Origin: Candidatus Anstonellaceae archaeon
Lineage (GTDB): Archaea; Micrarchaeota; Micrarchaeia; Anstonellales; Anstonellaceae
Direction of reading: 5' to 3'
NCBI GenBank assembly: GCA_038887295.1
Contig: JAWAKW010000001.1
Coordinates: 173,668-237,667 of the forward strand
DNA: 64,000 bases
The translations under genes were made by a program, and so were the position numbers. Shown here in pieces: positions 3,816 through 59,828 of the stretch (positions within the stretch are counted from its first letter, which is position 1; every line of letters starts with the position of its first letter). The notes under the pieces were generated by a model. The model searched no databases, was not told where the DNA came from, and saw only the letters and a list, made by a program, of their open reading frames with translations.

Positions 3816-4337
3816 TCAGTACTGCAAGCTTTTAACAAACCTCCTAAAGTGTTGCAAATAGCGCCTCATGTGGTGTTCTTGTTCAGATTGCGACATTTTT
3901 GCAAGCTCATAAGAAAGTCTCATAATTTCATAGTATGCCTCACCAAAGGCGGCATCTGAAGTTATTTCATCTTGGCTTGCTATTGAGGTTGCCTCGCACA
4001 GGTCGGCCAAATACTTAAGCTGCTCCAAAGCCTCTCTCCCTTTTTTAGTCAGCTTTAGGCGCTTCCTTGCTGTCAAGCGCTTTCGGATTGCAGAAAAAAG
4101 CATGACAAGATAATAGTATATTTGGTGCAAAATCGTCATTTTGGTTTCTGTCTGCCGCTGGACCGTAAGATCCACAACTATTGGTGCATAGGTTTCCTGC
4201 GGAACTATAAGAAGCGCCTCTGCTTTGGGATCAACAAAGCGTTCATCCATCAACCTGCCAAACTGGTGCCTTCTCCTTTCAACTGGTCCTTCTGGCTTTT
4301 TGAGAATTGGCTGAGGCTCCTGGAAAATCTGTTCCAT
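3816..4337 (-). CDS. hypothetical protein, possibly a PadR/winged-helix-like regulator
   Basis: 173-aa ORF with a basic helix segment KRLKLTKKGREALEQL; it is convergent with island gene 1. Confidence 0.3.
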   Translation of the reverse strand: MEQIFQEPQPILKKPEGPVERRRHQFGRLMDERFVDPKAEALLIVPQETYAPIVVDLTVQRQTETKMTILHQIYYYLVMLFSAIRKRLTARKRLKLTKKGREALEQLKYLADLCEATSIASQDEITSDAAFGEAYYEIMRLSYELAKMSQSEQEHHMRRYLQHFRRFVKSLQY

Positions 4338-4367
4338 ACTGGTCGCTGCTTTTATTTTTGTGTCAAG

Positions 4368-4378
4368 ATTTATATAAT
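4368..4378 (+). promoter_or_regulatory. archaeal TATA box for island gene 1 (leaderless start at 4401)
   Basis: TTTATATAA lies about 25-30 nt upstream of the ATG at 4401, the spacing typical of archaeal leaderless transcripts. Confidence 0.5.
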
Positions 4379-4400
4379 TGATTTTTCACGAAATACACTT

Positions 4401-7400
4401 ATGTTCAAACAAGAAAACACCTCTGTCTATTTTTCTAAAACAACCACACCATATTACTTTACTAGCCTAAACAACTATAAGGAAACACTTAAGGGAACTT
4501 CTAATATAACCATCGGCTTAATTAAAGTAAAAGAAGGAACTCTCAAAGAGATTCTCCAGCTACGTAATTCGTTTGGTTTTACAGAAGATCAAATCAAATC
4601 TTTGGTACCTTTTGGGACTCCTGATAGATCTGCTCCAACAAACATAATTGAAAGCAAAGATTATCTTTTACAAAAATATGGTGATTCCTACAGGATTTTT
4701 AAAAAAAATGTAGATCCTGTAGAAAGCCTCCAAAATGCGCTTTCTCCTTGGCAGATAAAAATAGATAAAGATGTTGCATCTCAAATCGTCAACAACTTAA
4801 TTTCTACAAAAGGAAAAGATTATTCAATAGGCGTTCAATCAAATGGTAAGGATTATGTACTTCGCTTCTCTTCTTTAAGTAATGGAACAACTTATTCTCT
4901 AAGTGTTTTTGAAACAAATATCCTCACAGAACAAATGCGAACTGAGATTGTTTCAAACTTTGAAAATTTTGAAAATCACTATAACTCAAATCCTGATTTC
5001 AAGAAGAAATGGGATAACTTTGCTTTGCTTAGGCCATTTCTTGTTGAAAAGATTATCACAGGAATGCAAAGTGAGATGAGAGAAATTTTTAGAACTTTTT
5101 CAGAAGGTCTTAATCATCACATCATTGCTGAGATCAACAAACCAATAATAACTGAAGGAATCGTTGGTTATGAACAAAAGAATTTGAACCTAAAAAGCAA
5201 TGGTAATTACTATGATATTGAGTTTTTGTCTTCACCAAATATTAAAGCTTTTGAAAATGATCTAAAAAAATATGGATTCAAAGAAGACGAAATCAAAAAA
5301 GCCAAAAAGCTTGACGAAACCACTATTTATTACCTCAATAATAGACCCTATCGTTATTACAAGCACGGTTATTATGAAATAAGAAACGACGGTCAAAGTT
5401 CATTTATTGCACAAAGGACAAAGGAGGGAGAATATGAGCTTATCTTAAGGATTAAGAAATCATACCTGGATGATAACAAGACCCTTAAACTGGGGGACTG
5501 GACTATTAGCAAGGCACAAAAAGATAGTGCAACCTTGAAAATCCCAATTTACGGCCAAAAAGAGGAACCTAACTTTTTCAAAAAGAACATTGAGGCCCAC
5601 ACACTTTATATTAGACCTTTAGATCCTAACTCAATCAAGCAGCTAGAGAAAGAAGGTGTAATATTTGAAGGAGAAGATCTAAAAACAATTGAACAGCTCT
5701 TATACAACTTATTAAAACCTTCTATGTTCGATTATTTATTAAGAAATAAGATCAAAACCGCAATCTCAAACATTAAAGATCCAAAATACGGCTTTTGGGA
5801 TATTGATAGTGGTGATTCTAGATTACAGATTAAAAAAATAGAACAGGGTAGAAAATTCCAAATAATAGATAAGCTTTTAATAGGAAAACAAATCGAAAAT
5901 GGAAGGCTTATAGGAAGCTTCCAATATAATGTTTCAGAAAAAAACGGCCGCGTCTGGCTTTCAACCTATCGTTATAGCGGGCTTTACTATTTAGATCCTT
6001 ATGCTATTGGAATGTTTTCTACTGCTGTCAAAGGATTTGTAGAAGGATTAAGCGGAATAGTTACAGATCCTATTGAATTTTTCTTACCTTTTTTGAAAAG
6101 ACCAAATGCTGTTGTCGAAAATGCAGTAAAGAACCCTACGCCTGAAAATATACGAAATGCAGCTTTCGCGTTGGATATGTGGATGGTAGATTCACTCTTG
6201 ACATCAACAGGATATGGTATAGTTATAAGCAAGGCCGCTTTAAAAGTTGTTGGACGGAGCCTTTCAAAAGCAACCTTAAGAAAGTTAGGTGAAAAGATAA
6301 CTAATGGGGGTATAATAGATAATCTTGCAAACCACCATGATGAAATCTTCAAAATTTTGATGGATACCAATCTAAAAAATGGGTCGTCAGTAGATAATAT
6401 AATAATCAAGTACGTCGGCGAGGATATATATCGTAAAGATCCAATCCAAGCGATCCAGAAGTTTTTTGATTCTCCTGACCCTCTTTTGATGCCTTTGAAA
6501 AGAGAAGTAGCAGAAGCACTCGGTGTCGATCTCACATTTTCTAATCTTGCCAAAGGAGCTGCAACAGCTGTATCTAAAACTGTGACTAATGTTGAAAGAT
6601 ATGCAAAACCCCTCCATCATTATTTAGACGATTGGACAGAACACGTCGCACAAAAGTTGCTTAGCGTTGACAAACAAGAGTTTTTACAGATAGATTTCTT
6701 ACCTTCTATTCAGTCATCCCTTGAGAAACTTCTAAAAAATAAACTGCAGAATCTAAAGATTGATATCAGCGAAATTTTGTCAAGAAAAGAAGTTCTTGAT
6801 GCGTATGAAAAAGCACTCAATTCTCTAAGTGCAGAAGATATTATAGAATATCTGAATGCAATTAAAAAGGAACTAATCAAAGAACTCAAAAATTTGAAAG
6901 CAGATAAAGAAATTATTGACTACGTTGAAAAAGGCATCACTTCTCCTCAGATAACAGGCAGGCCATTAGGCTCTGTTGGGCGGAAATTAACTGCGGAAGG
7001 TGCTCTCCTAGGTGAAATGTTAGAGGATATCATGCTGAAAGCGCAAATCAAAAGGCGTCTAATAAGCTCATTAAAAGACATTAGTGAGGAAGAAATCGGC
7101 CGTCAGGTAGATAATGTTTGTAAGAACATTAATTCTTGGAAAAGCAAGGAAGATTACATTAACCAATTCAAACAACATGTCAAAAACCTTGATGGAGTAA
7201 GCAAACAAATAATAGATGCAGTAAATTCTCTCAAACCACAAGAGATTCAAATCATTCCCATGGGTGCTCTTGTTTCAAAACAAGCAATTAAAAAAACTAA
7301 AAATTTACCCAGTAGTAGTGGAAAGCCTCAATTCCTCAATAGTATTCAAGATGCAAAAGACTCATACTCAATCCATATGTTTGGGGATGAACAAATCTTG

Positions 7401-8423
7401 CTTGGCTCACTTGCAAAGAAGGCAGATAAACTCGTCGACCTTCCAAACGAAATTATAAAAATGGAAGAATATCTTGCAAGATTCGTAGGCTTAAAAGACA
7501 GTCGCATTCTTAGGTTTATGAATGAAGACGATTTTATCTCCACTTTAAATAAAACTAAATATTCAGAAAAATACAAAGAATATTTAATAAAATCGTTTAA
7601 AGACCTTCGAGATCGATATATTCAATACACCTCAGGTAATTCTATAAGCGAAGCTTTCTTTATCGATTGCTCTTCCTTTGTTCAAAAAATGAAGAAAGCA
7701 AAGAATTTCAATTTCTTGAAGAATAGGAATCGACTGCAAACTATTATGCATGAACATCTATTCGATGCGATGAACGCAGTAAACGCTTATACAAGACGCC
7801 AAGAACTTATACAAAGTTTCATAAGTAAAATGGATGAGGCCAAAATTGAATTTAACAAGCAAATAAGAGACAAACTAGAAAAAGGGATAATCTCAGGTGA
7901 AGAACTAAAGAAGCTAGAAGATGAGATCATAAATAAGATAACTACTAATCAACAGTTGCAGCAAACACTCTCTGAGATCAGGAAACTCTCACTACAAATC
8001 GATTCATTTATCAAGGATACCATGTCGTATAAGTTCTTTAAACTCATGACTGATCTAGAATCATTCAGCAAAGTCGTGTCAGCTGTTATTAAGATCGGCA
8101 ACTCTATCTTCAAGAGTAGTAAAGAATTTTCCACCTTAATAAATAACTATCCCGAGCTTAAGATAACCATTATGGGATTAGTAATGTCAGAATATATAGA
8201 AGCATTATCGCAAAAAAAAGTCCCCCCAATTGACGATCTCATTAGAAATGCAAACGGACAAGTTTCCTCTCCAACTATCCTAAATAAACGCGGAGCCAAA
8301 TCTACAATACCAGAAGAATTGGAAACTCCAGAAGAATTGGAAACTAAAAATTCAGGTCAAGGTGAATCGAAAAGAATAGATATAGATCCCAATCAGAATA
8401 AATATCTAAAACCAGATTTTTAA
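4401..8423 (+). CDS. giant ORFan protein 1 (1340 aa), N/K-rich with a long coiled-coil region in its second half
   Basis: Long uninterrupted frame. The start was placed at the ATG at 4401 because the upstream extension in the ORF track overlaps the convergent gene 3816..4337 and a TATA box sits at -28. There is no signal peptide, no P-loop, and no family I recognise. Confidence 0.75.
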   Translation: MFKQENTSVYFSKTTTPYYFTSLNNYKETLKGTSNITIGLIKVKEGTLKEILQLRNSFGFTEDQIKSLVPFGTPDRSAPTNIIESKDYLLQKYGDSYRIFKKNVDPVESLQNALSPWQIKIDKDVASQIVNNLISTKGKDYSIGVQSNGKDYVLRFSSLSNGTTYSLSVFETNILTEQMRTEIVSNFENFENHYNSNPDFKKKWDNFALLRPFLVEKIITGMQSEMREIFRTFSEGLNHHIIAEINKPIITEGIVGYEQKNLNLKSNGNYYDIEFLSSPNIKAFENDLKKYGFKEDEIKKAKKLDETTIYYLNNRPYRYYKHGYYEIRNDGQSSFIAQRTKEGEYELILRIKKSYLDDNKTLKLGDWTISKAQKDSATLKIPIYGQKEEPNFFKKNIEAHTLYIRPLDPNSIKQLEKEGVIFEGEDLKTIEQLLYNLLKPSMFDYLLRNKIKTAISNIKDPKYGFWDIDSGDSRLQIKKIEQGRKFQIIDKLLIGKQIENGRLIGSFQYNVSEKNGRVWLSTYRYSGLYYLDPYAIGMFSTAVKGFVEGLSGIVTDPIEFFLPFLKRPNAVVENAVKNPTPENIRNAAFALDMWMVDSLLTSTGYGIVISKAALKVVGRSLSKATLRKLGEKITNGGIIDNLANHHDEIFKILMDTNLKNGSSVDNIIIKYVGEDIYRKDPIQAIQKFFDSPDPLLMPLKREVAEALGVDLTFSNLAKGAATAVSKTVTNVERYAKPLHHYLDDWTEHVAQKLLSVDKQEFLQIDFLPSIQSSLEKLLKNKLQNLKIDISEILSRKEVLDAYEKALNSLSAEDIIEYLNAIKKELIKELKNLKADKEIIDYVEKGITSPQITGRPLGSVGRKLTAEGALLGEMLEDIMLKAQIKRRLISSLKDISEEEIGRQVDNVCKNINSWKSKEDYINQFKQHVKNLDGVSKQIIDAVNSLKPQEIQIIPMGALVSKQAIKKTKNLPSSSGKPQFLNSIQDAKDSYSIHMFGDEQILLGSLAKKADKLVDLPNEIIKMEEYLARFVGLKDSRILRFMNEDDFISTLNKTKYSEKYKEYLIKSFKDLRDRYIQYTSGNSISEAFFIDCSSFVQKMKKAKNFNFLKNRNRLQTIMHEHLFDAMNAVNAYTRRQELIQSFISKMDEAKIEFNKQIRDKLEKGIISGEELKKLEDEIINKITTNQQLQQTLSEIRKLSLQIDSFIKDTMSYKFFKLMTDLESFSKVVSAVIKIGNSIFKSSKEFSTLINNYPELKITIMGLVMSEYIEALSQKKVPPIDDLIRNANGQVSSPTILNKRGAKSTIPEELETPEELETKNSGQGESKRIDIDPNQNKYLKPDF

Positions 8424-8464
8424 ATATTGATTGAAATATTGAATAAATGTGAAGAGGTGTTCAT

Positions 8465-11035
8465 ATGAATCAAAACACACAACAAAAATCTGTCAATCAT
8501 ATTGATGAATTTAATAGATATGCCAATTGGTGTATGTCCTTTTCTACTAAATATGGCAATTCTTTCAGGAAAGAAGGAGACAATATTGAAATAGTTGATA
8601 ACAGAACTGAAAGCAATAAAATACAGATAACAAAAAAAGAAATCGGAGACTTATTTTATAATTTCAAGCAAGTCAAATATCATTTTGACCAACTTACCAA
8701 ACAAGGTCTAAATAACGAAGAAATCAAGGAGTTATTCTCTACTCTAGAACTATGGAAGTATTTCTTCTTTGGCAACCTACCGTGGGATACTGATCACAAA
8801 GCCAAAGATGTAATTTCCTCATTTCAAAACATGAAAGATCTTTTTATGTATAAAACTTGGGTAACAGAATTCAAAGGTGCAAAAAATGACCAAGACAAAA
8901 TAAATCTTTGGTACAATATCAAAAAGGTTTTCAACTTGGCAGATAAGCATGTGAAGGATAAAAACTCTACTGTTGAATCTCTCTCTAATCAAGTCTATAA
9001 TGATATAATTAAAGATGTTGAGAAAATCAAAAATAGATATTTTAAAGGTCTTGATTTAAACACATTACATAATGAGAAAGAAAAAATCATAGATTCATAT
9101 AATAAATCCGTAATAGCTTCTTCTCCGACAAGCAAAAAGACCAATCAACCAGCACCCTCAAATATAGTGCTAACAGCAGAGCAAATATACAAACAAAATA
9201 AATACCTCCAAGCAGCAGCAACAGTCGATTTCGATAATGCCCCAAATGCAACAAGAAGACTCTTGGTTTCATCAGGTCTTCTTACTGAAGAACAGTTGGA
9301 AAAACCAAATGAGACCATTCAAGCAATATTTACTTCGTTTTATACCATGAAGCTTGTTAGAGAAGAAAACGCTACAAAAAAGACGATACAACTTCTCAAA
9401 TCCATCATGGAAAAGGACGGGGTTGAAATCACCCCGGAAAACATCCTCAAATATCTATGGAACGAACAAGAACAAAGATCAAGGCTTGCCGCAGCGATGG
9501 TAGGCCAGCAAATTGGCAATAAAAAAGTAAGTCAAGGAAATGCAAAGTGGTGGGAAGGCATATTTAAGATAGTCTATGAGCGTTCTGGGGCAACTCAAGT
9601 GCAAGTTCCGACTCTCCAAAGTGAGCATAATGCTCTTCTTCGCCAGGCAGAAGAGCTCATTAACAATGCAACAGACTACCAAAAGCAGCAGCCAGCATTC
9701 CAATCTCTCAACACTATTTACCAGGCAAATAAAGATTTATCTCCAACAGACATTACACAAGAGACAAATAATGCACTCAAGAATGCGATTGAAGAAGCCA
9801 AAAAGGCCCCACTTTCTCCTGAACAGAAGTTAGAGGCCCAGTCTCAGAAGCGACAGCTCAATGTCATTTATTCCTACAACAACGAGTTTGCCAATATAGA
9901 TCATCCATTGGCAAAGCACCTTCACAAAGAGTTACAAAAAGATACAGGCTATTTTTCAATCATAGCATCATCTCTGTACCGAAAGATAGATCAAGAAAGT
10001 ATAGCGGCAGCATCTATAATAGCAGAAGATTATGTAAATGCAGTCAAGTCAAACATTCAATTTTTTGCAAAGTTTTATGACCAGTCAAAGTCTTTCGGAG
10101 AGAACGTAGTTCAATATTACAGAAATCTTCAAGTATTAGATTTGATTTCATTGCTTGGAAAAAGAGTGCCAATTGATAATCAAGGCAATACCGCACTTTA
10201 TACTACCACAAGCTATTTCATTGATATGGGTTATATAAAGAAAGAAGGTGAAAAATTTGTTGCAACAGATGACGCCCCGCAATTGCTTAAAAATATGATG
10301 AAAAGAGGATCTTTGGTAGGAACCGCAGAGCAAATACTAAATCAAGACGCATTTGAGATCCTTGCGCATTTTGGTCTTGCAACTATTGACAAGAAAGGCA
10401 AAGTGAGTCTGGATGAAGCAGCATTAAATAAGCTCTCCAACGAAGAGCAAGAGATACTAAAGAACTTTGTAAATAAGTACAACTCTGACAAAACAGTTGC
10501 AATATACGAAAGTGAGCCAGGCAAGTCTTCGCCCGCAGAAGTTATGGTTAAGCTTGTAAAAAGTTATATTCAACCTTCACCAGAAAATATTACTGAAAGA
10601 AAAGAAACAACAACTACTCAAACGCCTCCCACAAAGAAAGAAGAACAACCAACAACTCCACCACAGCCCACCCCTCAGCCACCCATCACAGGCGAAAAAC
10701 CTGAGAGCACGCAATTACCACCAGAACAGACGAGAATAATAATTGGAGATGCTTGGTTCGAAAGTAACGAAGCCAGCACTTATAGATATAATAATGAATT
10801 CCAAAACATAAGAGGTTTGGAGAAAATACATGAGATACTAAGCAAACAGTGGGGTGAGCTTGTAAATCAAGTCAAACAGAAGCTTGGAAACGATGAAGTT
10901 CTAACTTTGCAAAAAATCCAGAATTTTGTCAATACTGTAATATCTGATGACATGCTAAAATCCTATTCTCAAAGTTATTTAACTAATATAAATTCTCTAT
11001 CTAATTACATTGCAGCTATGGAGATTAGAAAATAG
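8465..11035 (+). CDS. giant ORFan protein 2 (856 aa) with a Thr/Pro/Gln-rich linker
   Basis: GAGGTG Shine-Dalgarno 6 nt upstream of the ATG and a 41-nt gap after gene 1 indicate an operon. The low-complexity TTTTQTPPTKKEEQPTTPPQPTPQPP segment lies near the C-terminus. Confidence 0.75.
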   Translation: MNQNTQQKSVNHIDEFNRYANWCMSFSTKYGNSFRKEGDNIEIVDNRTESNKIQITKKEIGDLFYNFKQVKYHFDQLTKQGLNNEEIKELFSTLELWKYFFFGNLPWDTDHKAKDVISSFQNMKDLFMYKTWVTEFKGAKNDQDKINLWYNIKKVFNLADKHVKDKNSTVESLSNQVYNDIIKDVEKIKNRYFKGLDLNTLHNEKEKIIDSYNKSVIASSPTSKKTNQPAPSNIVLTAEQIYKQNKYLQAAATVDFDNAPNATRRLLVSSGLLTEEQLEKPNETIQAIFTSFYTMKLVREENATKKTIQLLKSIMEKDGVEITPENILKYLWNEQEQRSRLAAAMVGQQIGNKKVSQGNAKWWEGIFKIVYERSGATQVQVPTLQSEHNALLRQAEELINNATDYQKQQPAFQSLNTIYQANKDLSPTDITQETNNALKNAIEEAKKAPLSPEQKLEAQSQKRQLNVIYSYNNEFANIDHPLAKHLHKELQKDTGYFSIIASSLYRKIDQESIAAASIIAEDYVNAVKSNIQFFAKFYDQSKSFGENVVQYYRNLQVLDLISLLGKRVPIDNQGNTALYTTTSYFIDMGYIKKEGEKFVATDDAPQLLKNMMKRGSLVGTAEQILNQDAFEILAHFGLATIDKKGKVSLDEAALNKLSNEEQEILKNFVNKYNSDKTVAIYESEPGKSSPAEVMVKLVKSYIQPSPENITERKETTTTQTPPTKKEEQPTTPPQPTPQPPITGEKPESTQLPPEQTRIIIGDAWFESNEASTYRYNNEFQNIRGLEKIHEILSKQWGELVNQVKQKLGNDEVLTLQKIQNFVNTVISDDMLKSYSQSYLTNINSLSNYIAAMEIRK

Positions 11036-11104
11036 CGCATACATCCTAAAGAAATCTCGTGGAATTGATTAGCTTTATATTAATATTATATATAATTTAT
11101 AAAC

Positions 11105-13384
11105 ATGAATCAATACAAGCTAATCCAATCCAAAAATGAAACCATAAAGGATATTTTAGAAGGTATCAAAGATAAAAAAACCAAAGACGATGTCAAAAAT
11201 GTAATCAACAATATCAAAGATGATTACAAATATCTAAAAGATTTCCTTGTAGGTGTTTATCATCTCCAAAACTTTAATAGTATAATCCTATCCCTCATCA
11301 AGCTTTATGATAAAGATCCAAATAATTTTCGACAAAATATCGAGTATCTCCACTCAGTTTTGCTGCAAAAGGATATAAACAAATTTAGTGAAGAGTTAAG
11401 CTCTTTAACAACAAGCACCACTCAGATTTTAACAACAAGCAGCACTCAGATACCGCTGCCAAAGTCCGCTTCAAATTGGTATCTGATTGGTATGTCCCTT
11501 TTCTCTGACAAACCATTTTCTCCACGGTATTCTCCCATGCCACACAAACCTTCCAGAATATGGACACCTTTCGATCAGAGGATGCAACAGATTATGTACG
11601 GAGATTTAAATCAATCCTTCATCCAAGAATATAATGTTCAAGCATGGCCCTTCCAACTTGATTTTCCAGAGCGATATCTAAATCTTTTTAGACCTACTCG
11701 TGTGAGATATCCATTTTTAGTTACTGGATATTTCACGGGAGGAAGTCTCGTGAATCTTAATTTTAACTCAGGTAATATTGATACATTTTCTCTTATAGAT
11801 ACTGCTCACTTAGTCACAGGAGTGAATGTTCTCAAAAATAAATTAATCATAAATCAAGCAGCCATAGCCTTTAAAATGCTTCAAGGAACAACTTCTCTAT
11901 CACGTATTGAAAGGCACACGGATTTATCATCTAAACTGGATCTGCTTTTTAGGAATGGGGAAAAAACTACAGGTCAAATGCTTGTATTCCTTGAAAATAA
12001 ACGTTATGGCATACTCCAAGGCTACTATTACGACGGCAAAAGCTGGTTTGCATCAGATTTGGTCATGAGAGATGGAAAAATCATCTCTGGTGGAACAGCC
12101 CAAGGCGTTCTTCAGGGAGATTCTTTGGCAGGTTTATTTAATTACAATAAGCTAGGTGAGAATGACACTTTCTACGTAGTGCTTTACTCTAATTCTTTGG
12201 GGGCAGGTGTTGAAGCACAACAAAACACCAACCAAAAGCTAATCTCTTTCTTGAAGAATCTGGACGATTTTTCAGTTGAAGTCGGAGTCTTCTCTTTAGA
12301 GAGAGGCTATTTCGGTCAAGATGTTGATAAAGCTCAAGGTGGTATAATTGGGTTTGGCAACCAAAACTTTCATGTTTCTACATTTGTCGGTTCAGAGCAT
12401 TCTGAAGTTAATATACTTGGACTTGCAGCTGCTGCACAACGCACTGCAGCATCATTTTTCATAAGAAAAAATGAGGAAGGGGATATCACTCACGGAAATA
12501 TCAACCTTTCTACTTCTAAAAAGATAGGAAATACCACAATAACTTTTTCATCAAGAGTGAAAGGCTCTAAAAGAAGCACAGAGGGCCAAGGAGCTATCGA
12601 GGTTAGAATAGGAGAGGACGCAGATGCAACTATCATCAGATTTGGTTATGATGGTATCAGTCAGGTCGATTTCTTCAAGCGGTCTGCAAACTTCTTTAAT
12701 AGCCAAAATATAACAGACACAAGAAGCCTCATCAACGCAATCAATGCTCTTCTTTTAGTTACGCCCCTCGAAAACTTTCCTTATCCCTTAGCACAAGTGG
12801 AAATTGAAAAGGATGGAGGAAGAATCACATTATCCAAGTTAAAAGAAGGAGGAAGCGGATTCTCCTACGAAATAAAAGATTTTATGGGCATGAAAAAAGC
12901 ATTTTCCTCATTAGCTTTGACACCAAAGGGCAAAATCCTTAATTTAGGGTTTGATGTTGACCATAATAATCAACTAGTATTGCAAGTAGGCAACAAGAAT
13001 GTTGCTCTTGGCACCAGAGTAAAAATCGGAGAAGGTAAAATAGTCGGATCGGCTGGATGGGAACAAGGTTCTTTTAAGACCACTTTTGGATATAGTGAGA
13101 AATTAGGAGATACATCTGTTGAATCGGCTATGGTTACAGGTAAAAGTCCACAAGGTAACTATTGGGGGGGCCAGCTTAATATTTCTTATAAGATTGATGA
13201 TAATGTAAATCTTGGAGGTTCTGTTGGAGTTCTAAAGTTCAATAATATCACATACTTTTCAGCTGGCAGCAACTTTAAGATCAAGAATGACTGGGGGGAA
13301 TTCCAAGCGGGATTTGTCTTTATGTTCTCGAAAATTTCACCCCTCAACTATTTCTTCTCTATCAATTATGGCTCTAGAAAATAG
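11105..13384 (+). CDS. giant ORFan protein 3 (759 aa) with a beta-rich, beta-barrel-like C-terminal half
   Basis: The C-terminal roughly 400 aa show alternating hydrophobic/Gly-Ser-Asn-Thr patterning (GSVGVLKFNNITYFSAGSNFKIKNDWGEFQAGFVFMF). An AT-rich TATA-like stretch lies immediately upstream. Confidence 0.75.
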   Translation: MNQYKLIQSKNETIKDILEGIKDKKTKDDVKNVINNIKDDYKYLKDFLVGVYHLQNFNSIILSLIKLYDKDPNNFRQNIEYLHSVLLQKDINKFSEELSSLTTSTTQILTTSSTQIPLPKSASNWYLIGMSLFSDKPFSPRYSPMPHKPSRIWTPFDQRMQQIMYGDLNQSFIQEYNVQAWPFQLDFPERYLNLFRPTRVRYPFLVTGYFTGGSLVNLNFNSGNIDTFSLIDTAHLVTGVNVLKNKLIINQAAIAFKMLQGTTSLSRIERHTDLSSKLDLLFRNGEKTTGQMLVFLENKRYGILQGYYYDGKSWFASDLVMRDGKIISGGTAQGVLQGDSLAGLFNYNKLGENDTFYVVLYSNSLGAGVEAQQNTNQKLISFLKNLDDFSVEVGVFSLERGYFGQDVDKAQGGIIGFGNQNFHVSTFVGSEHSEVNILGLAAAAQRTAASFFIRKNEEGDITHGNINLSTSKKIGNTTITFSSRVKGSKRSTEGQGAIEVRIGEDADATIIRFGYDGISQVDFFKRSANFFNSQNITDTRSLINAINALLLVTPLENFPYPLAQVEIEKDGGRITLSKLKEGGSGFSYEIKDFMGMKKAFSSLALTPKGKILNLGFDVDHNNQLVLQVGNKNVALGTRVKIGEGKIVGSAGWEQGSFKTTFGYSEKLGDTSVESAMVTGKSPQGNYWGGQLNISYKIDDNVNLGGSVGVLKFNNITYFSAGSNFKIKNDWGEFQAGFVFMFSKISPLNYFFSINYGSRK

Positions 13385-26902: not shown

Positions 26903-26964
26903 CGAAAACCGCAACAGAGACAAAAAAGCCTCACCCCTTGCTTCAAGACGCTCCATTCTTTATT

Positions 26965-28577
<1,613 letters not shown>

Positions 28578-54564: not shown

Positions 54565-54650
54565 TAGCCCCAATCGGATTCGAACCGATGTCCCGAGGTC
54601 TCTCCCGTCAGACCAGAGCCTCGTGTCCTTGACCACTAGACGATGGGGCT
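54565..54650 (-). tRNA. tRNA-Gln(CTG) with a 13-nt intron at the canonical 37/38 position
   Basis: Manual fold gives acceptor AGCCCCA/TGGGGCT (A1:U72 is typical of archaeal tRNA-Gln), D-arm GTCT-AGTGGTCAA-GGAC, anticodon stem CGAGG/CCTCG separated by 20 nt (loop CTCTGG plus intron TCTGACGGGAGAG plus A), and T-arm ATCGG-TTCGAAT-CCGAT. Confidence 0.7.
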
Positions 54651-56240: not shown

Positions 56241-57419
56241 TTGGGAATTTGCCTCATGGCAGGTGAAGAGGAGGCAATTGGTGCGCTTGGCCTTCTTATC
56301 CTGATTGGTCTGGCAAGCAGACTTTTCCTCAAAAAGACAGGACTTTCAGACCTTTTCATTTTGATGCTGGTTGGAATAGCAGCAGGCCTATTTATTCCAG
56401 CCCAAACGATACAGACGCTTTCGGCATTTGCTCTGCCTTTTGCAGCAATTACACTTTTCATGATAATACTTGGTGAAGGGCTGAACATTTCAATAGAGCA
56501 TGCCAAGCACCTACATAAGGCACTGCTTTTGGGAACGTTTTCCTTCTTCTTTTCATTCCTTTCTATTTTCGTCATTCTTAATTTTGCAATCGACGCAGAG
56601 CTTTTTGTCTTGCTTACTGTAGCTTCAATTTTTGGCGGAATTGCACCAGAGCTTGCATTAAGCGTCATTTCAGGATTAGGCAGAGGCAAAGAGGCAGCTG
56701 CAATAGGTGAGCTTGAAGCAGTATTTTCTGATGCTCTTTCAATTATGCTTGCATTAGTCTTCCTTTCAGCTGCAATTTCTGGCAAAGAGCCTCAGTTCCT
56801 TCCATTTGAGCTTGCTTTTGAGGTGCTGCTTTCGGTTGCAGCAGGAGCAGTTTTTGCTGCATTCTGGAAAGCATTCTTGTTTAAAAGCGAGGAAGAACAT
56901 CAACATCTTCTGGTAATTGGGCTTGCAGCAATTCTTTATGCCATAAGCGGTTTATTAGGTGCAAATGGAGTAATTTCAGTATTTATCTTTGCATTCTTTT
57001 TGGGCAATCTTTCCCACCCATCAATCAATGAAATGAGAAGATTCCAATTCGAACTTTCATTTTTCCTGAGAACTTTCTTTTTTGTTTATCTTGGGATGCT
57101 GCTATTCCATTCTCCAAAGCCATTTGAACTTGCAACGATTGCCCTTGCCTGTTCACTTACGCTTGCCTTTTTTCGACTTGTCTGCACAAGGCTTGTCCTT
57201 TTTATTGCCCCAGAAGCAAAAGAAGAAAGAATACTCGAATTTATCTCTGGTAGAGGACTAACTTCTGCAGTGCTTTCAGTGTTTACACACCAAAAATTTA
57301 CCTCTCACGGCATTTCATCAATAGACCTTCCATTGTTTGCTCTTTTTGTAATTTTCTTCACTAACGCAATCTCAGCATTTCTTCTTTTTAAGAAAAGGAA
57401 GCTCAAAGCAGCCGGTTGA
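56241..57419 (+). CDS. cation/proton antiporter (CPA family)
   Basis: Polytopic membrane protein of 392 aa with the CPA-like helix organisation. Confidence 0.6.
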   Translation: MGICLMAGEEEAIGALGLLILIGLASRLFLKKTGLSDLFILMLVGIAAGLFIPAQTIQTLSAFALPFAAITLFMIILGEGLNISIEHAKHLHKALLLGTFSFFFSFLSIFVILNFAIDAELFVLLTVASIFGGIAPELALSVISGLGRGKEAAAIGELEAVFSDALSIMLALVFLSAAISGKEPQFLPFELAFEVLLSVAAGAVFAAFWKAFLFKSEEEHQHLLVIGLAAILYAISGLLGANGVISVFIFAFFLGNLSHPSINEMRRFQFELSFFLRTFFFVYLGMLLFHSPKPFELATIALACSLTLAFFRLVCTRLVLFIAPEAKEERILEFISGRGLTSAVLSVFTHQKFTSHGISSIDLPLFALFVIFFTNAISAFLLFKKRKLKAAG

Positions 57420-58086
57420 TTTTGTCCTTATGCTTCTTTGCAACCTCAGCAACCACGTCCTTTAGGCCAAGTCCGATTGCAATTGCAAAGCCCAATCCAA
57501 CTGCAACTGCAAATGCAGAAAGGAGCACCAGGAAAGACCAAATCAGAAGAGATGGATCTGCCGCAGGCAAAAGCAGAGGCAAAGCAATCACAAGTGCATT
57601 GTATGCTATGAAAATCTCTACTAGAATAGCAAGGGAATTGGCAAACGGTATCTTTTTGCTTTCTTTCATTTTGTCAGTTATGTAGTCTCCTGCCATGAGC
57701 GCAGCCATCAAGATTATTACTCCTTGAAGCAGCATGGGTAAATACCCAATTGCTTGCAGGGCAATAGTGCTTATTAGGCCAATCTTGACTACATCAGCAG
57801 CAATTCCCAAAAAAGCCACCATTATGTACAGCTTCAAAAGCGTCACGGCAATTCCACTGAATGTAAAGCCCAAAAATGCATCATGCACGCCGTGGCTTTC
57901 TAAGAATTTCTCCAGGCGTATCCTTACAAAAAACTCTTTGAGTGCATTCCCAAGAAGATAAGCAACGCCCCAGCCTATTGCAAGAATCACAACCAGTATG
58001 GCAAAAGCAGCCACCCCTTCAAGCAAATTGCCTACAAACCCGCTTGCACCAGTGGCAAACTTGTCAAGCGCCATTTCAAACGCCAT
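57403..58086 (-). CDS. hypothetical polytopic membrane protein
   Basis: Six or seven hydrophobic helices. Confidence 0.4.
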   Translation of the reverse strand: MAFEMALDKFATGASGFVGNLLEGVAAFAILVVILAIGWGVAYLLGNALKEFFVRIRLEKFLESHGVHDAFLGFTFSGIAVTLLKLYIMVAFLGIAADVVKIGLISTIALQAIGYLPMLLQGVIILMAALMAGDYITDKMKESKKIPFANSLAILVEIFIAYNALVIALPLLLPAADPSLLIWSFLVLLSAFAVAVGLGFAIAIGLGLKDVVAEVAKKHKDKINRLL

Positions 58087-58141: not shown

Positions 58142-58741
58142 TCAGCAAGAACTAGAAAAAGACTCAAATTCATCCAACTTTTTTCTTGCCTGATTTACAA
58201 GAGAAGCAAAATCAAAGTTCTGGTCGTTGTCCGCTGATGCAAACTGCGCAAGCAGCTGGACGTCTTTTTTCCTGATTGCACTTTCAACTACCCACCTAAG
58301 CTCCCTATTTACTCCTCGGATTGCTTGTTTGAAATGAAACAAATCCTTTTCGCAATGGTATACCATATTTAGTTGGTTGTGCCTAATTAGTATTAGCAAG
58401 CCATATCTTATCGCTCTCTTTTGCATGCAATAAAACAGCGCATTTGCTATCCTTTCAAATTGATGGTTTCTTGCAAGCGCATCAATTGCAATAATCGAGT
58501 TCCATCTACCTTCTGCATAGCCTGCAATGCTTTCTAATATATCAAAAGCCCCATTTCTTTCAAGGAACAGTATCGCCTCCCTTACCTCATTTATATTCTT
58601 TGACTTTTTTGCGGTGTACTCTGCCATAGCAAGCTTTTGCGCAGTGATGTCTTCCTCAACAATTACTGCAACCCGCCTTATTTCAGTGCCGACTCGCTTA
58701 GCAGGAGTAGTGGTGAGATATTTGACCCTCTTTTGCATCAT
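58142..58741 (-). CDS. hypothetical protein
   Basis: Start trimmed to MMQKRVKYL so the ORF does not run into the divergent tRNA-Val gene. Confidence 0.35.
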   Translation of the reverse strand: MMQKRVKYLTTTPAKRVGTEIRRVAVIVEEDITAQKLAMAEYTAKKSKNINEVREAILFLERNGAFDILESIAGYAEGRWNSIIAIDALARNHQFERIANALFYCMQKRAIRYGLLILIRHNQLNMVYHCEKDLFHFKQAIRGVNRELRWVVESAIRKKDVQLLAQFASADNDQNFDFASLVNQARKKLDEFESFSSSC

Positions 58742-58815
58742 TCTTTTTTCCTTTGAACATTTTATAAAGCAAAATGCCACATTTTTTAGCTGTTTGCAGC
58801 CAAAACAGAAAGCAA

Positions 58816-58910
58816 GGGCCCGTAGTCGAATAGCCAAATCCAGGCTCGACAATGGTTAAGACGTCGCTCTTACACAGCGAAGATTCGCGGTTCGAATCCG
58901 CGCGGGCCCA
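58816..58910 (+). tRNA. tRNA-Val(TAC) with a 22-nt non-canonical intron in the D-loop
   Basis: Manual fold gives acceptor GGGCCCG/CGGGCCC, anticodon arm TCGCT-CTTACAC-AGCGA, variable AGATT and T-arm CGCGG-TTCGAAT-CCGCG. The stretch between nt 8 and 26 is 41 nt instead of 19, and removing AATAGCCAAATCCAGGCTCGAC (58829..58850) restores a normal D-arm. Confidence 0.7.
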
Positions 58911-58924
58911 TTCCCTAGGGGGCA

Positions 58925-59050
58925 CTAATCTAATCCTTAGGGCCCCCTGAGGGTTCACCCCCAAAGGGCAACCGCAATTTTTTTGGTATGGGGATCTAAT
59001 CTAATCCTTAGCGCCCCCTCACTGTTCAACCCGAATGGTAACCGCAATTT
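58925..59050. repeat. tandem pair of ~55-60-nt imperfect direct repeats downstream of tRNA-Val
   Basis: ctaatctaatccttagggccccctgagggttcacccccaaagggcaaccgcaattttt compared with ctaatctaatccttagcgccccctcactgttcaacccgaatggtaaccgcaatttttt. Confidence 0.75.
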
Positions 59051-59139
59051 TTTGGAAAGAGTTTGCCAAAAATAAGACAACCCACTATTCTGCAAACTTT
59101 TTTTCTTCAACCCCCAAACTCCCCAGCAGATCTAGTGTT

Positions 59140-59260
59140 TGCCTTAGGGGTTGAGGAAAGGGGACAATAGAAACGCTGGTGTTCCCCTTTCCACTGGTGT
59201 TGGCATTAGGGGTTGAGGAAAGGGGACAGTGGAAAATCTAGTGTTCCCCTTTCCAGGGTG
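59140..59260. repeat. tandem pair of ~55-nt direct repeats, each holding a 10-bp GC-rich hairpin
   Basis: ttaggggttgaggaaaggggaca.tagaaa..ctggtgttcccctttcc occurs twice, each with stem GGAAAGGGGA/TCCCCTTTCC; the repeats lie at the 3' end of the minus-strand gene 59238..59828. Confidence 0.75.
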
Positions 59261-59828
59261 TGCCTTCTATAAAGTAGGAAAGCTCGACCAGATATCTTAC
59301 ATATTTTTTCCTTCCAGCATAAGATAACTCATCGTATGCAAGCACTCCCAAATCGGTTAAACAGATTTTGCGTTCCTCAAAAAATGAGGAGGATGGCAAG
59401 ATGTAGCATTGACCTTCATCAGTATTACCAATGGGCACTTTTTCTACTTCAACTGCGCCTGTCAGATTAATCTCATAGGCAGAAAGCATTCTGTTGCTTT
59501 CAAAGAAAGTAGTTATATCATTACATTCTTCCTTCTCATTTTTTATGCAAAAAAACACTTGATTTTCAAGAAAATAAAATAAAATTGAAGACCTTTTTTC
59601 AGCATCTGCATAAACTTCAATTTTCATTCTTCTTCCTTCTCGCCATACTGTCTCATACCTTTCTTTGCCATCCTCATAAATTACATAATGCGCAGTATAG
59701 TTGATTTTACTTTCGGGAAGGAAAAAAAACTGACTGCTTGAAGCACCATCTGGTCTATTTTGCGTCTCATTATTTTGAATGTCAACACAGCCAAGCAAAA
59801 GCAGGAATGCCAAAATTTCAAATCGCAC
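59238..59828 (-). CDS. putative secreted lipoprotein-like protein
   Basis: A signal peptide ending LLLLGC followed by a hydrophilic domain. Confidence 0.45.
   Translation of the reverse strand: MRFEILAFLLLLGCVDIQNNETQNRPDGASSSQFFFLPESKINYTAHYVIYEDGKERYETVWREGRRMKIEVYADAEKRSSILFYFLENQVFFCIKNEKEECNDITTFFESNRMLSAYEINLTGAVEVEKVPIGNTDEGQCYILPSSSFFEERKICLTDLGVLAYDELSYAGRKKYVRYLVELSYFIEGTPWKGEH

Follow-up and report, generated by a model that had tools for sequence, protein, structure and literature searches.

We identified a tRNA-Val(UAC) gene carrying 22 additional nucleotides in its D-loop at 58816..58910 (+) of the window, i.e. the whole 64-kb stretch (64,000 nucleotides) of the Candidatus Anstonellaceae archaeon contig analysed here, in which Rfam recognises one archaeal 16S rRNA and three tRNAs. 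The presence of the insert is confirmed. [quoted passage not shown]

The gene comprises 95 nt and gives a mature tRNA of 73 nt before the CCA, as supported by Rfam RF00005 and, after splicing, by ARAGORN. RF00005 matches 58816-58910 (+) over model positions 1-71 with 58.5 bits, compared to a gathering score of 29, and places 27 nt in the D-loop for which the Rfam tRNA model has 4. On the unspliced sequence ARAGORN reported no tRNA at 58816-58910; after in-silico splicing it returned tRNA-Val(tac) of 73 nt. The sequence-only reading, which had described 22 extra nucleotides in the D-loop of a tRNA-Val(TAC), was thus borne out by the Rfam loop length and by the 73-nt tRNA obtained upon removal of the insert. 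Its count of 41 instead of 19 nt between positions 8 and 26 is correct with both positions included, and the removal of 58829-58850 it suggested yields the same 73-nt product called tRNA-Val(tac) by ARAGORN. No tool offered an alternative register in which the region would form an intact tRNA without an intron.

Read in the 5' to 3' direction, the first half of the gene consists of GGGCCCG, UA, GUCG, AAU, AGCC, AAAUCCA, GGCU, CGAC, AAU, GGUUA, AGAC and G, followed in the second half by the anticodon arm UCGCU-CUUACAC-AGCGA, AGAUU, the T-arm CGCGG-UUCGAAU-CCGCG, CGGGCCC and A. The 5' exon (58816..58830, +) covers positions 1-15 with the 5' strand of the acceptor stem, U8 A9, the D-stem residues G10-G13 and A14 A15, while the 3' exon (58853..58910, +) begins with U16, continues with G18 G19 (58854-58855), contains the anticodon TAC at 58871-58873, as read from the sequence, and ends with the discriminator A73. 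The spliced 73-nt product shows canonical U8, A14, A15-U48 (R15-Y48), G18 G19 and U54-A58 and, together with its 7-bp acceptor stem, the T-loop UUCGAAU and the anticodon UAC, has all features of a class I tRNA-Val. About 50 nt upstream of the gene we found a TATA-like box, TTTATAAA, at 58761..58768 (+), being a candidate promoter element judged by its sequence; the same motif is present at equal distance upstream in the related loci L130, L138 and L139.

Folding of the precursor places the insert in a defined secondary structure, in which the minimum free energy (MFE) folds pair the exon sequence GUCG of D-stem positions 10-13 (58825..58828, +) with the intron sequence CGAC (58847..58850, +), resulting in a 4-bp helix, here termed helix H. 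Its 5' strand is followed by a bulge AAU (58829..58831, +) and the inner intron hairpin (58832..58846, +), composed of AGCC (58832-58835), the loop AAAUCCA (58836-58842) and GGCU (58843-58846), which directly abuts the 3' strand of helix H; the latter is followed by a second AAU (58851..58853, +). RNAfold recovered helix H with its 3-nt bulge and the inner helix for the whole gene (z = -4.0 compared to shuffles) and the same three elements for the D region alone (-9.4 kcal/mol). The pairings GUCG/CGAC and AGCC/GGCU and the flanking AAU of the sequence-only reading all agree with the sequence and with these folds. Two hallmarks of archaeal BHB-type introns are therefore present, i.e. the 4-bp exon-intron helix GUCG/CGAC and, at the 5' splice site, a 3-nt bulge AAU enclosed by two helices, helix H and AGCC/GGCU. 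The strict hBHBh' 3-4-3 motif is not formed, the second bulge being devoid of a closing outer helix in the fold of the window's gene: A9 and G18 are unable to pair, which assigns the intron to the relaxed hBH or bulge-helix-loop (BHL) subclass. In composition-matched random inserts, the signature of seven base pairs at the same fixed offsets occurred in only 253 of 1,000,000 shuffles (2.5e-4); as it is present in six out of six independent inserts described below, this structure exceeds what is expected by chance.

The sequence of the window on its own does not fix the boundaries of the intron, because AAT is present at both junctions. The intron may start anywhere from 58829 to 58832, i.e. 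be shifted by 2 nt to the left or 1 nt to the right, leaving the product unchanged, and 58829-58850 and 58831-58852 give one and the same product. We place the intron UAGCCAAAUCCAGGCUCGACAA, 22 nt in length, at 58831..58852 (+), formally 15/16, based on the Rfam insertion, the cleavage rule and a comparison to the L077 gene. According to structural work summarised in PMC5829648, the scissile phosphate follows the second bulge nucleotide. For the window's gene this EndA mechanism predicts cuts after A15 (58830) and after 58852, the latter within the AAU without outer helix. Applied to all homologues, the rule results in the D-loops AAU, AGU or AAC, each of which is found in intron-less relatives. 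Cutting L077 at 13/14 or 14/15 instead yields AGU, and the identity to the intron-less genes L031/L073 is lost; together with the cleavage rule this excludes 13/14 and 14/15 and supports 15/16. The bounds 58829-58850 proposed initially thus give the right mature sequence, while the 13/14 boundary they imply fails. A literature search returned no published intron at 15/16; since the slash notation is poorly searchable, this is not evidence of novelty.

To place the gene among its relatives, we identified orthologues by their neighbouring genes. The product of the gene at 57403-58086 (-) shares 100% identity with MEM4554471.1 (QXT25_01310), a hypothetical protein on a 442-kb MAG contig of a Candidatus Anstonellaceae archaeon, and its next-best matches originate from Micrarchaeota/Micrarchaeia MAGs, which places the window in the order Anstonellales of the phylum Micrarchaeota (DPANN). 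At a neighbour identity of more than 90%, the loci L138 (GCA_038891035.1) and L139 (SRR27730023) carry an identical 22-nt intron, showing that it is not an artefact. At 77% identity, L130 (GCA_026413765.1) has a 28-nt D-loop intron in a tRNA-Val with the anticodon CAC and L133 has no D-loop intron, and at 74% L135-137 carry a 33-nt D-loop intron. No D-loop intron is present in L028, L042, L061, L084, L096 and L129 (about 60-70% identity for contigs that include the neighbour gene; L028 was placed by its other flanking genes) nor in the more distant L063 and L064. Over its first 49 nt the spliced window gene is identical to L028, L042, L061, L084, L096 and L129; across the full length, three positions distinguish it from L028. 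The tRNA-Val of L130 (~2130-2230, -) has acceptor and T arms identical to those of the window's gene, differs in its anticodon, CAC instead of UAC, and is kept below the gathering score of Rfam by its 28-nt D-loop intron.

The suggestion that the intron could serve as a marker of the lineage does not hold, as most syntenic orthologues have no intron and its distribution is patchy even at 74-77% neighbour identity. This patchy presence, together with near-identical or identical exons with and without an intron, shows that it is not a fixed lineage trait. In evolutionary terms the intron is labile, and it occupies a site that has been used recurrently.

This recurrent use became apparent from related genes interrupted at the same position. 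We scanned metagenomes with the pattern GGGCCYGTAGTCGA-N(0-30)-GGTYARGACG, allowing gaps of up to 30 nt, and obtained at least 119 tRNA-Val-like genes with a normal D-loop and at least three with same-site inserts, i.e. L057 (25 nt), L077 (16 nt) and L080 (28 nt). The numbers of intron-bearing genes given here are minimum values; due to the gap limit of 30 nt the scan missed the 33-nt intron of L135-137, which was found through synteny. A scan of a genome collection, which required the T-loop TTCGAATCC, matched nine loci pointing to Micrarchaeota, most relatives having the T-loop TTCGATT or TTCGATC rather than TTCGAATCC. The viral contigs scanned gave no match. Including the loci found through synteny, there are five further independent inserts, in L130 (28 nt), L135-137 (33 nt), L057 (25 nt), L077 (16 nt) and L080 (28 nt). 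In two cases an intron-less counterpart is known for the complete product: spliced L136 equals the intron-less L024, and spliced L077 is identical to the intron-less L031/L073. Excision in silico thereby restores a conserved mature RNA for the window's gene, L136 and L077.

All six distinct inserts share a common MFE architecture, although their inner helices have no sequence in common. In each of them D-stem positions 10-13 form a 4-bp helix with four intron bases located 3 nt upstream of G18, exactly three nucleotides are unpaired on the 5' side, and on the 3' side the inner helix abuts the 4-bp helix. We quantified covariation in this small set of six sequences for seven pairs, whose offsets were fixed relative to G13 and G18, using our own alignment with the loops replaced. 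Of the cells of these seven pairs 97.6% are paired, compared to 21-52% in slid registers, and the covariation score is 0.61 versus 0.205 in shuffles (reached by 0/500). Helix H is paired in 100% of the cells in the six sequences, including one change from G-C to G-U and one from C-G to G-C. The inner helix differs in sequence in every homologue with pairing being kept, two of the three scored pairs having changed on both sides. The relaxed hBH motif put forward from the sequence is thereby supported by the fold recovered, by the geometry common to six inserts, by covariation and by the spliced products being equal to intron-less genes.

Within this set, L130 is a particularly informative homologue, showing exon GUGG, intron CCAC and a D-stem 3' strand of (A)CAC. 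Exon G12, the intron C and D-stem C23 constitute a three-way compensatory change, and these coordinated changes indicate that the precursor helix and the mature D-stem are both maintained. The single-stranded nature of the 3' site is not uniform across the homologues, as in L130 and L135 a pairing of U8 A9 with two of the three 3' nucleotides, namely the first two, is conceivable, which would bury the 3' site in a helix. We also considered TCGA...TCGAC in the window's gene as a target-site duplication and rejected this reading, since GTCGAC is palindromic and GUGG/CCAC of L130 represents complementarity, not repetition.

The site is not restricted to tRNA-Val. In L057, a tRNA-Gln-like gene (~153-262, +) upstream of the tRNA-Val contains a 16-nt D-loop intron at the 15/16 site, with a GUCU/GGAC helix and the bulge AGA, and a second intron in its T-loop; the tRNA-Val of L057 likewise has a second intron, in the variable region. 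Unrelated introns of 16-33 nt are hence found at one site in tRNA-Val(UAC), (CAC) and (GAC) and in tRNA-Gln. Among the matches listed, 78 complete distinct tRNA-Val-like genes could be compared for their insert sites: 50 are free of inserts, about 20 carry an intron in the anticodon loop, and the remainder comprise a handful with introns in the anticodon stem, variable region or T-loop and three with the D-loop intron. A side observation concerns other archaeal tRNA-Val genes, those of L002, L006, L021, L089 and L119, in which non-canonical inserts of ~17-49 nt interrupt the anticodon stem on its 5' strand, around 28/29-29/30; uncultured archaea thus have introns at several distinct sites of tRNA-Val.

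A further intron and several intron-like inserts are present in the window itself. The tRNA-Gln(CUG) gene at 54565-54650 (-) has a 13-nt intron at the canonical position 37/38 with a strict 3-4-3 BHB motif and is misread by ARAGORN as 'tRNA-???' with a four-base anticodon (ctgg). The 16S rRNA gene at 26964-28577 (-), 1614 nt in length compared to 1478 positions of the model, contains three short inserts of ~49, 29 and 44 nt at ~28150-28198, 28017-28045 and 27769-27812 (-), which are all located in universally conserved loops, among them the 530 loop (GCCGCC^GCGGUAA). Each shares the architecture of the tRNA-Val intron, with an exon-intron helix of 4 bp (mismatched at one position in one insert), a 3-nt bulge and an inner helix abutting the 4-bp helix, and the archaeal consensus is restored when the inserts are excised by the cleavage rule given above. 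Judged by these features, the three inserts look like hBH-type mini-introns, which lends indirect support to a host endonuclease routinely handling relaxed motifs.

Based on these data we propose a model for the maturation of the tRNA. In the precursor G10-G13 (GUCG) would pair with intron CGAC instead of the usual partner A22-C25, thereby forming the 4-bp central helix of a BHB-like motif. On the 5' side of this helix, a 3-nt bulge (A14 A15 U) would separate it from the intron hairpin AGCC/GGCU, and on the 3' side A A U16 would follow without a closing helix, resulting in a relaxed hBH (bulge-helix-loop) substrate. EndA is predicted to cleave each 3-nt element 3' of its second nucleotide, the exact cut sites being deduced from the rule mentioned above, and an RtcB-type ligation would then join ...GUCGAA to UGGUUAAGAC..., giving a predicted spliced junction at which ...GUAGUCGAA is directly followed by UGGUUAAGACG.... 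Upon release of the intron, the D-stem could re-form with GAC, resulting in a standard 73-nt tRNA.

Such a route presupposes a host enzyme that presumably tolerates relaxed motifs. Relaxed motifs at non-canonical positions are cut only by (alpha-beta)2, epsilon2 and possibly loop-bearing DPANN alpha4 enzymes (PMC5829648), and it was in Ca. Micrarchaeum (ARMAN-2) that epsilon2 EndA, an enzyme with in-vitro activity on hBH/BHL introns, was first found (PMC3239211). Pfam scans of the ~70 ORFs of the window revealed no tRNA_int_endo domain, and neither an EndA nor an RtcB gene was found within the 64 kb.

Other explanations of the insert have to be weighed against splicing of a functional gene. 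The gene might be a decaying pseudogene, i.e. a tRNA-Val copy broken by random insertion or by the scar of a mobile element, in line with the locus being a rearrangement hot spot in relatives, where L028, L129 and L137 have incomplete copies of the tRNA-Val 3' end downstream of the gene, and with the extra ORF and the repeat units adjoining the tRNA in the window. We regard this as very unlikely, since the exons are intact, with 49 nt identical to intron-less orthologues and all tertiary-pair positions being canonical, and since the insert has no terminal inverted repeats. In L130, moreover, complementarity takes the place of a target-site duplication, compensatory changes preserve both the exon-intron helix and the D-stem, and the identical gene with a conserved TATA-like box is found in three assemblies. 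Slightly less likely still is a mature tRNA retaining the 22 nt as an extra hairpin in an enlarged D-arm. A stable local hairpin does form in RNAfold; however, the intron bases sequester the 5' strand of the D-stem, so that a normal D-stem could not form. Both length (16-33 nt) and sequence of the inserts vary, and what is kept, namely helix H with its 3-nt bulge and the adjoining inner helix, is the recognition geometry of the endonuclease. Retention is further disfavoured by near-identical or identical exons existing with and without an insert and by the same architecture occurring in the 530 loop and other universal 16S loops, which are intolerant of retained inserts.

Least likely of all, in our view, is that the intron is removed by a route other than EndA, i.e. 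by self-splicing or by an unknown RNase acting on the hairpin. EndA not being found in the window and the 3' site having no closing helix of the strict motif would fit this explanation. Against it, the 16-33 nt are far below the size of group I or group II ribozymes, and the geometry exactly matches relaxed EndA substrates characterised biochemically in the same phylum (PMC3239211; PMC12397907). EndA-dependent splicing of a functional tRNA-Val(UAC) precursor hence stays the explanation we prefer.

The surroundings of the gene show several additional features. Directly 3' of the tRNA-Val, two tandem units of ~67 nt (65-70 nt) are located at 58916-58982 and 58987-59053 (+), each ending in 6-7 T; as the first T-run after the tRNA-Val is the end of unit 1, this unit may be co-transcribed with the tRNA. 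About five such units are present at L130 and one at L137. They share a GGCAC(U)AA start and a small covarying hairpin (CUGA-GGG...CCC-CGAA), for which RNAalifold gave a weak 3-bp consensus hairpin only. A scan of 58700-59000 gave no Rfam match for the units at E up to 1, and C/D boxes, as expected for C/D-box sRNAs, were not seen by eye. A second tandem pair, consisting of 62-nt direct repeats with 87% identity (59132-59193 and 59194-59255, +), lies at the 3' end of a convergent ORF (59238-59828), each repeat containing an imperfect hairpin GGAAAGGGGAC...GUUCCCCUUUCC; these repeats are also present in L138.

On the other side, an ORF of 199 aa (58142-58741, -) is located between a conserved 227-aa gene and the tRNA-Val. 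Checked as a gene of an integrase or mobile element, it matched no Pfam or NCBIfam family. The slot is occupied by an ORF of 188-221 aa in the closest relatives L130, L131, L132, L138 and L139 and is empty in more distant syntenic loci, in which the tRNA directly follows the 227-aa gene. In L028, L129 and L137, the partial tRNA-Val 3'-half duplicates are found 100-200 nt downstream of the intact gene and span the insert-interrupted T-arm to GATTCCTCGCGGGCCCA. They resemble integration or recombination scars, suggesting a hot spot of mobile elements at the tRNA-Val locus of this lineage. At a distance from the tRNA, the region 4122-13384 (+) contains three very large consecutive ORFs of 1433, 856 and 759 aa without a Pfam domain; its G+C content of 35%, compared to 41-49% elsewhere, suggests that it may be horizontally acquired or a surface-protein island.

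D-loop introns and splicing via relaxed motifs are already known, also in Micrarchaeota, and our data reveal no new mechanism. One of the closest systems is the pre-tRNA-Cys(GCA) of ARMAN-2 (Candidatus Micrarchaeum acidiphilum), in which a 13-nt hBH/BHL intron at 59/60 is cleaved by the epsilon2 EndA (PMC3239211; PMC3488258; PMC12397907). Both systems belong to the phylum Micrarchaeota and have short non-canonical introns with relaxed motifs and many disrupted tRNA genes, and in both one bulge lies between two helices with the other splice site being in an unclosed region. They differ in the position of the intron, T-loop 59/60 in ARMAN-2 versus D-loop 15/16 here, and in the host, which here belongs to the family Anstonellaceae. 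A D-loop intron in an otherwise normal tRNA has been described for pre-tRNA-Thr2(UGU) of Aeropyrum pernix, which is cleaved in vitro by an (alpha-beta)2 EndA (PMC3241643); this intron is removed by EndA alone, the tRNA core slowing cleavage (PMC3241643). In contrast to the gene described here, which has no outer helix and stems from a DPANN archaeon, the crenarchaeal intron shows a full BHB with both bulges closed, and the type of enzyme presumably differs as well. The pre-tRNA-Glu(UUC) of Methanopyrus kandleri likewise has a relaxed motif in the D-loop, its HBh' intron being poorly cut by the organism's own enzyme (PMC5829648); unlike the hBH intron reported here, it is located at 20b/21, on the other side of G18 G19.

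Gain, loss and transposition of introns in Thermoproteales and the heterogeneity of tRNA-Thr in a Caldiarchaeum population (PMC4090602; PMC3293823) resemble our observations in that close genomes differ in the presence of an intron at one tRNA locus and in that relatives have tRNA fragments and mobile-element scars at this locus. Here, however, the introns occupying the shared site are unrelated in sequence, and transposition of one intron family therefore has no evidence in this lineage. No recombinase gene adjoining the tRNA-Val was identified in the window.

As a consequence of such introns, tRNA finders miss the corresponding genes, as does ARAGORN for the window's gene and Rfam at its gathering threshold for L130, and annotations of MAGs of these archaea will therefore seem to lack tRNA-Val. 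This is consistent with the published view that the incompleteness of tRNA sets in DPANN reflects disrupted genes that escaped detection (PMC5829648). Our analysis extends non-canonical tRNA introns with relaxed motifs to another family of Micrarchaeota and to the D-loop 15/16 site, shows polymorphism in intron presence and absence between close relatives, and supplies six natural variants of one substrate geometry for tests of endonuclease specificity. Whether position 15/16 is a recurrently used intron site with fast turnover in Anstonellaceae-like Micrarchaeota we can only put forward as a tentative and rather doubtful generalisation. If the introns were gained recently and independently, and do not descend from a single old intron through divergence and repeated loss, they would represent snapshots of the creation of BHB introns at a defined site and, at the same time, a set of natural substrates with which a DPANN endonuclease could be probed.
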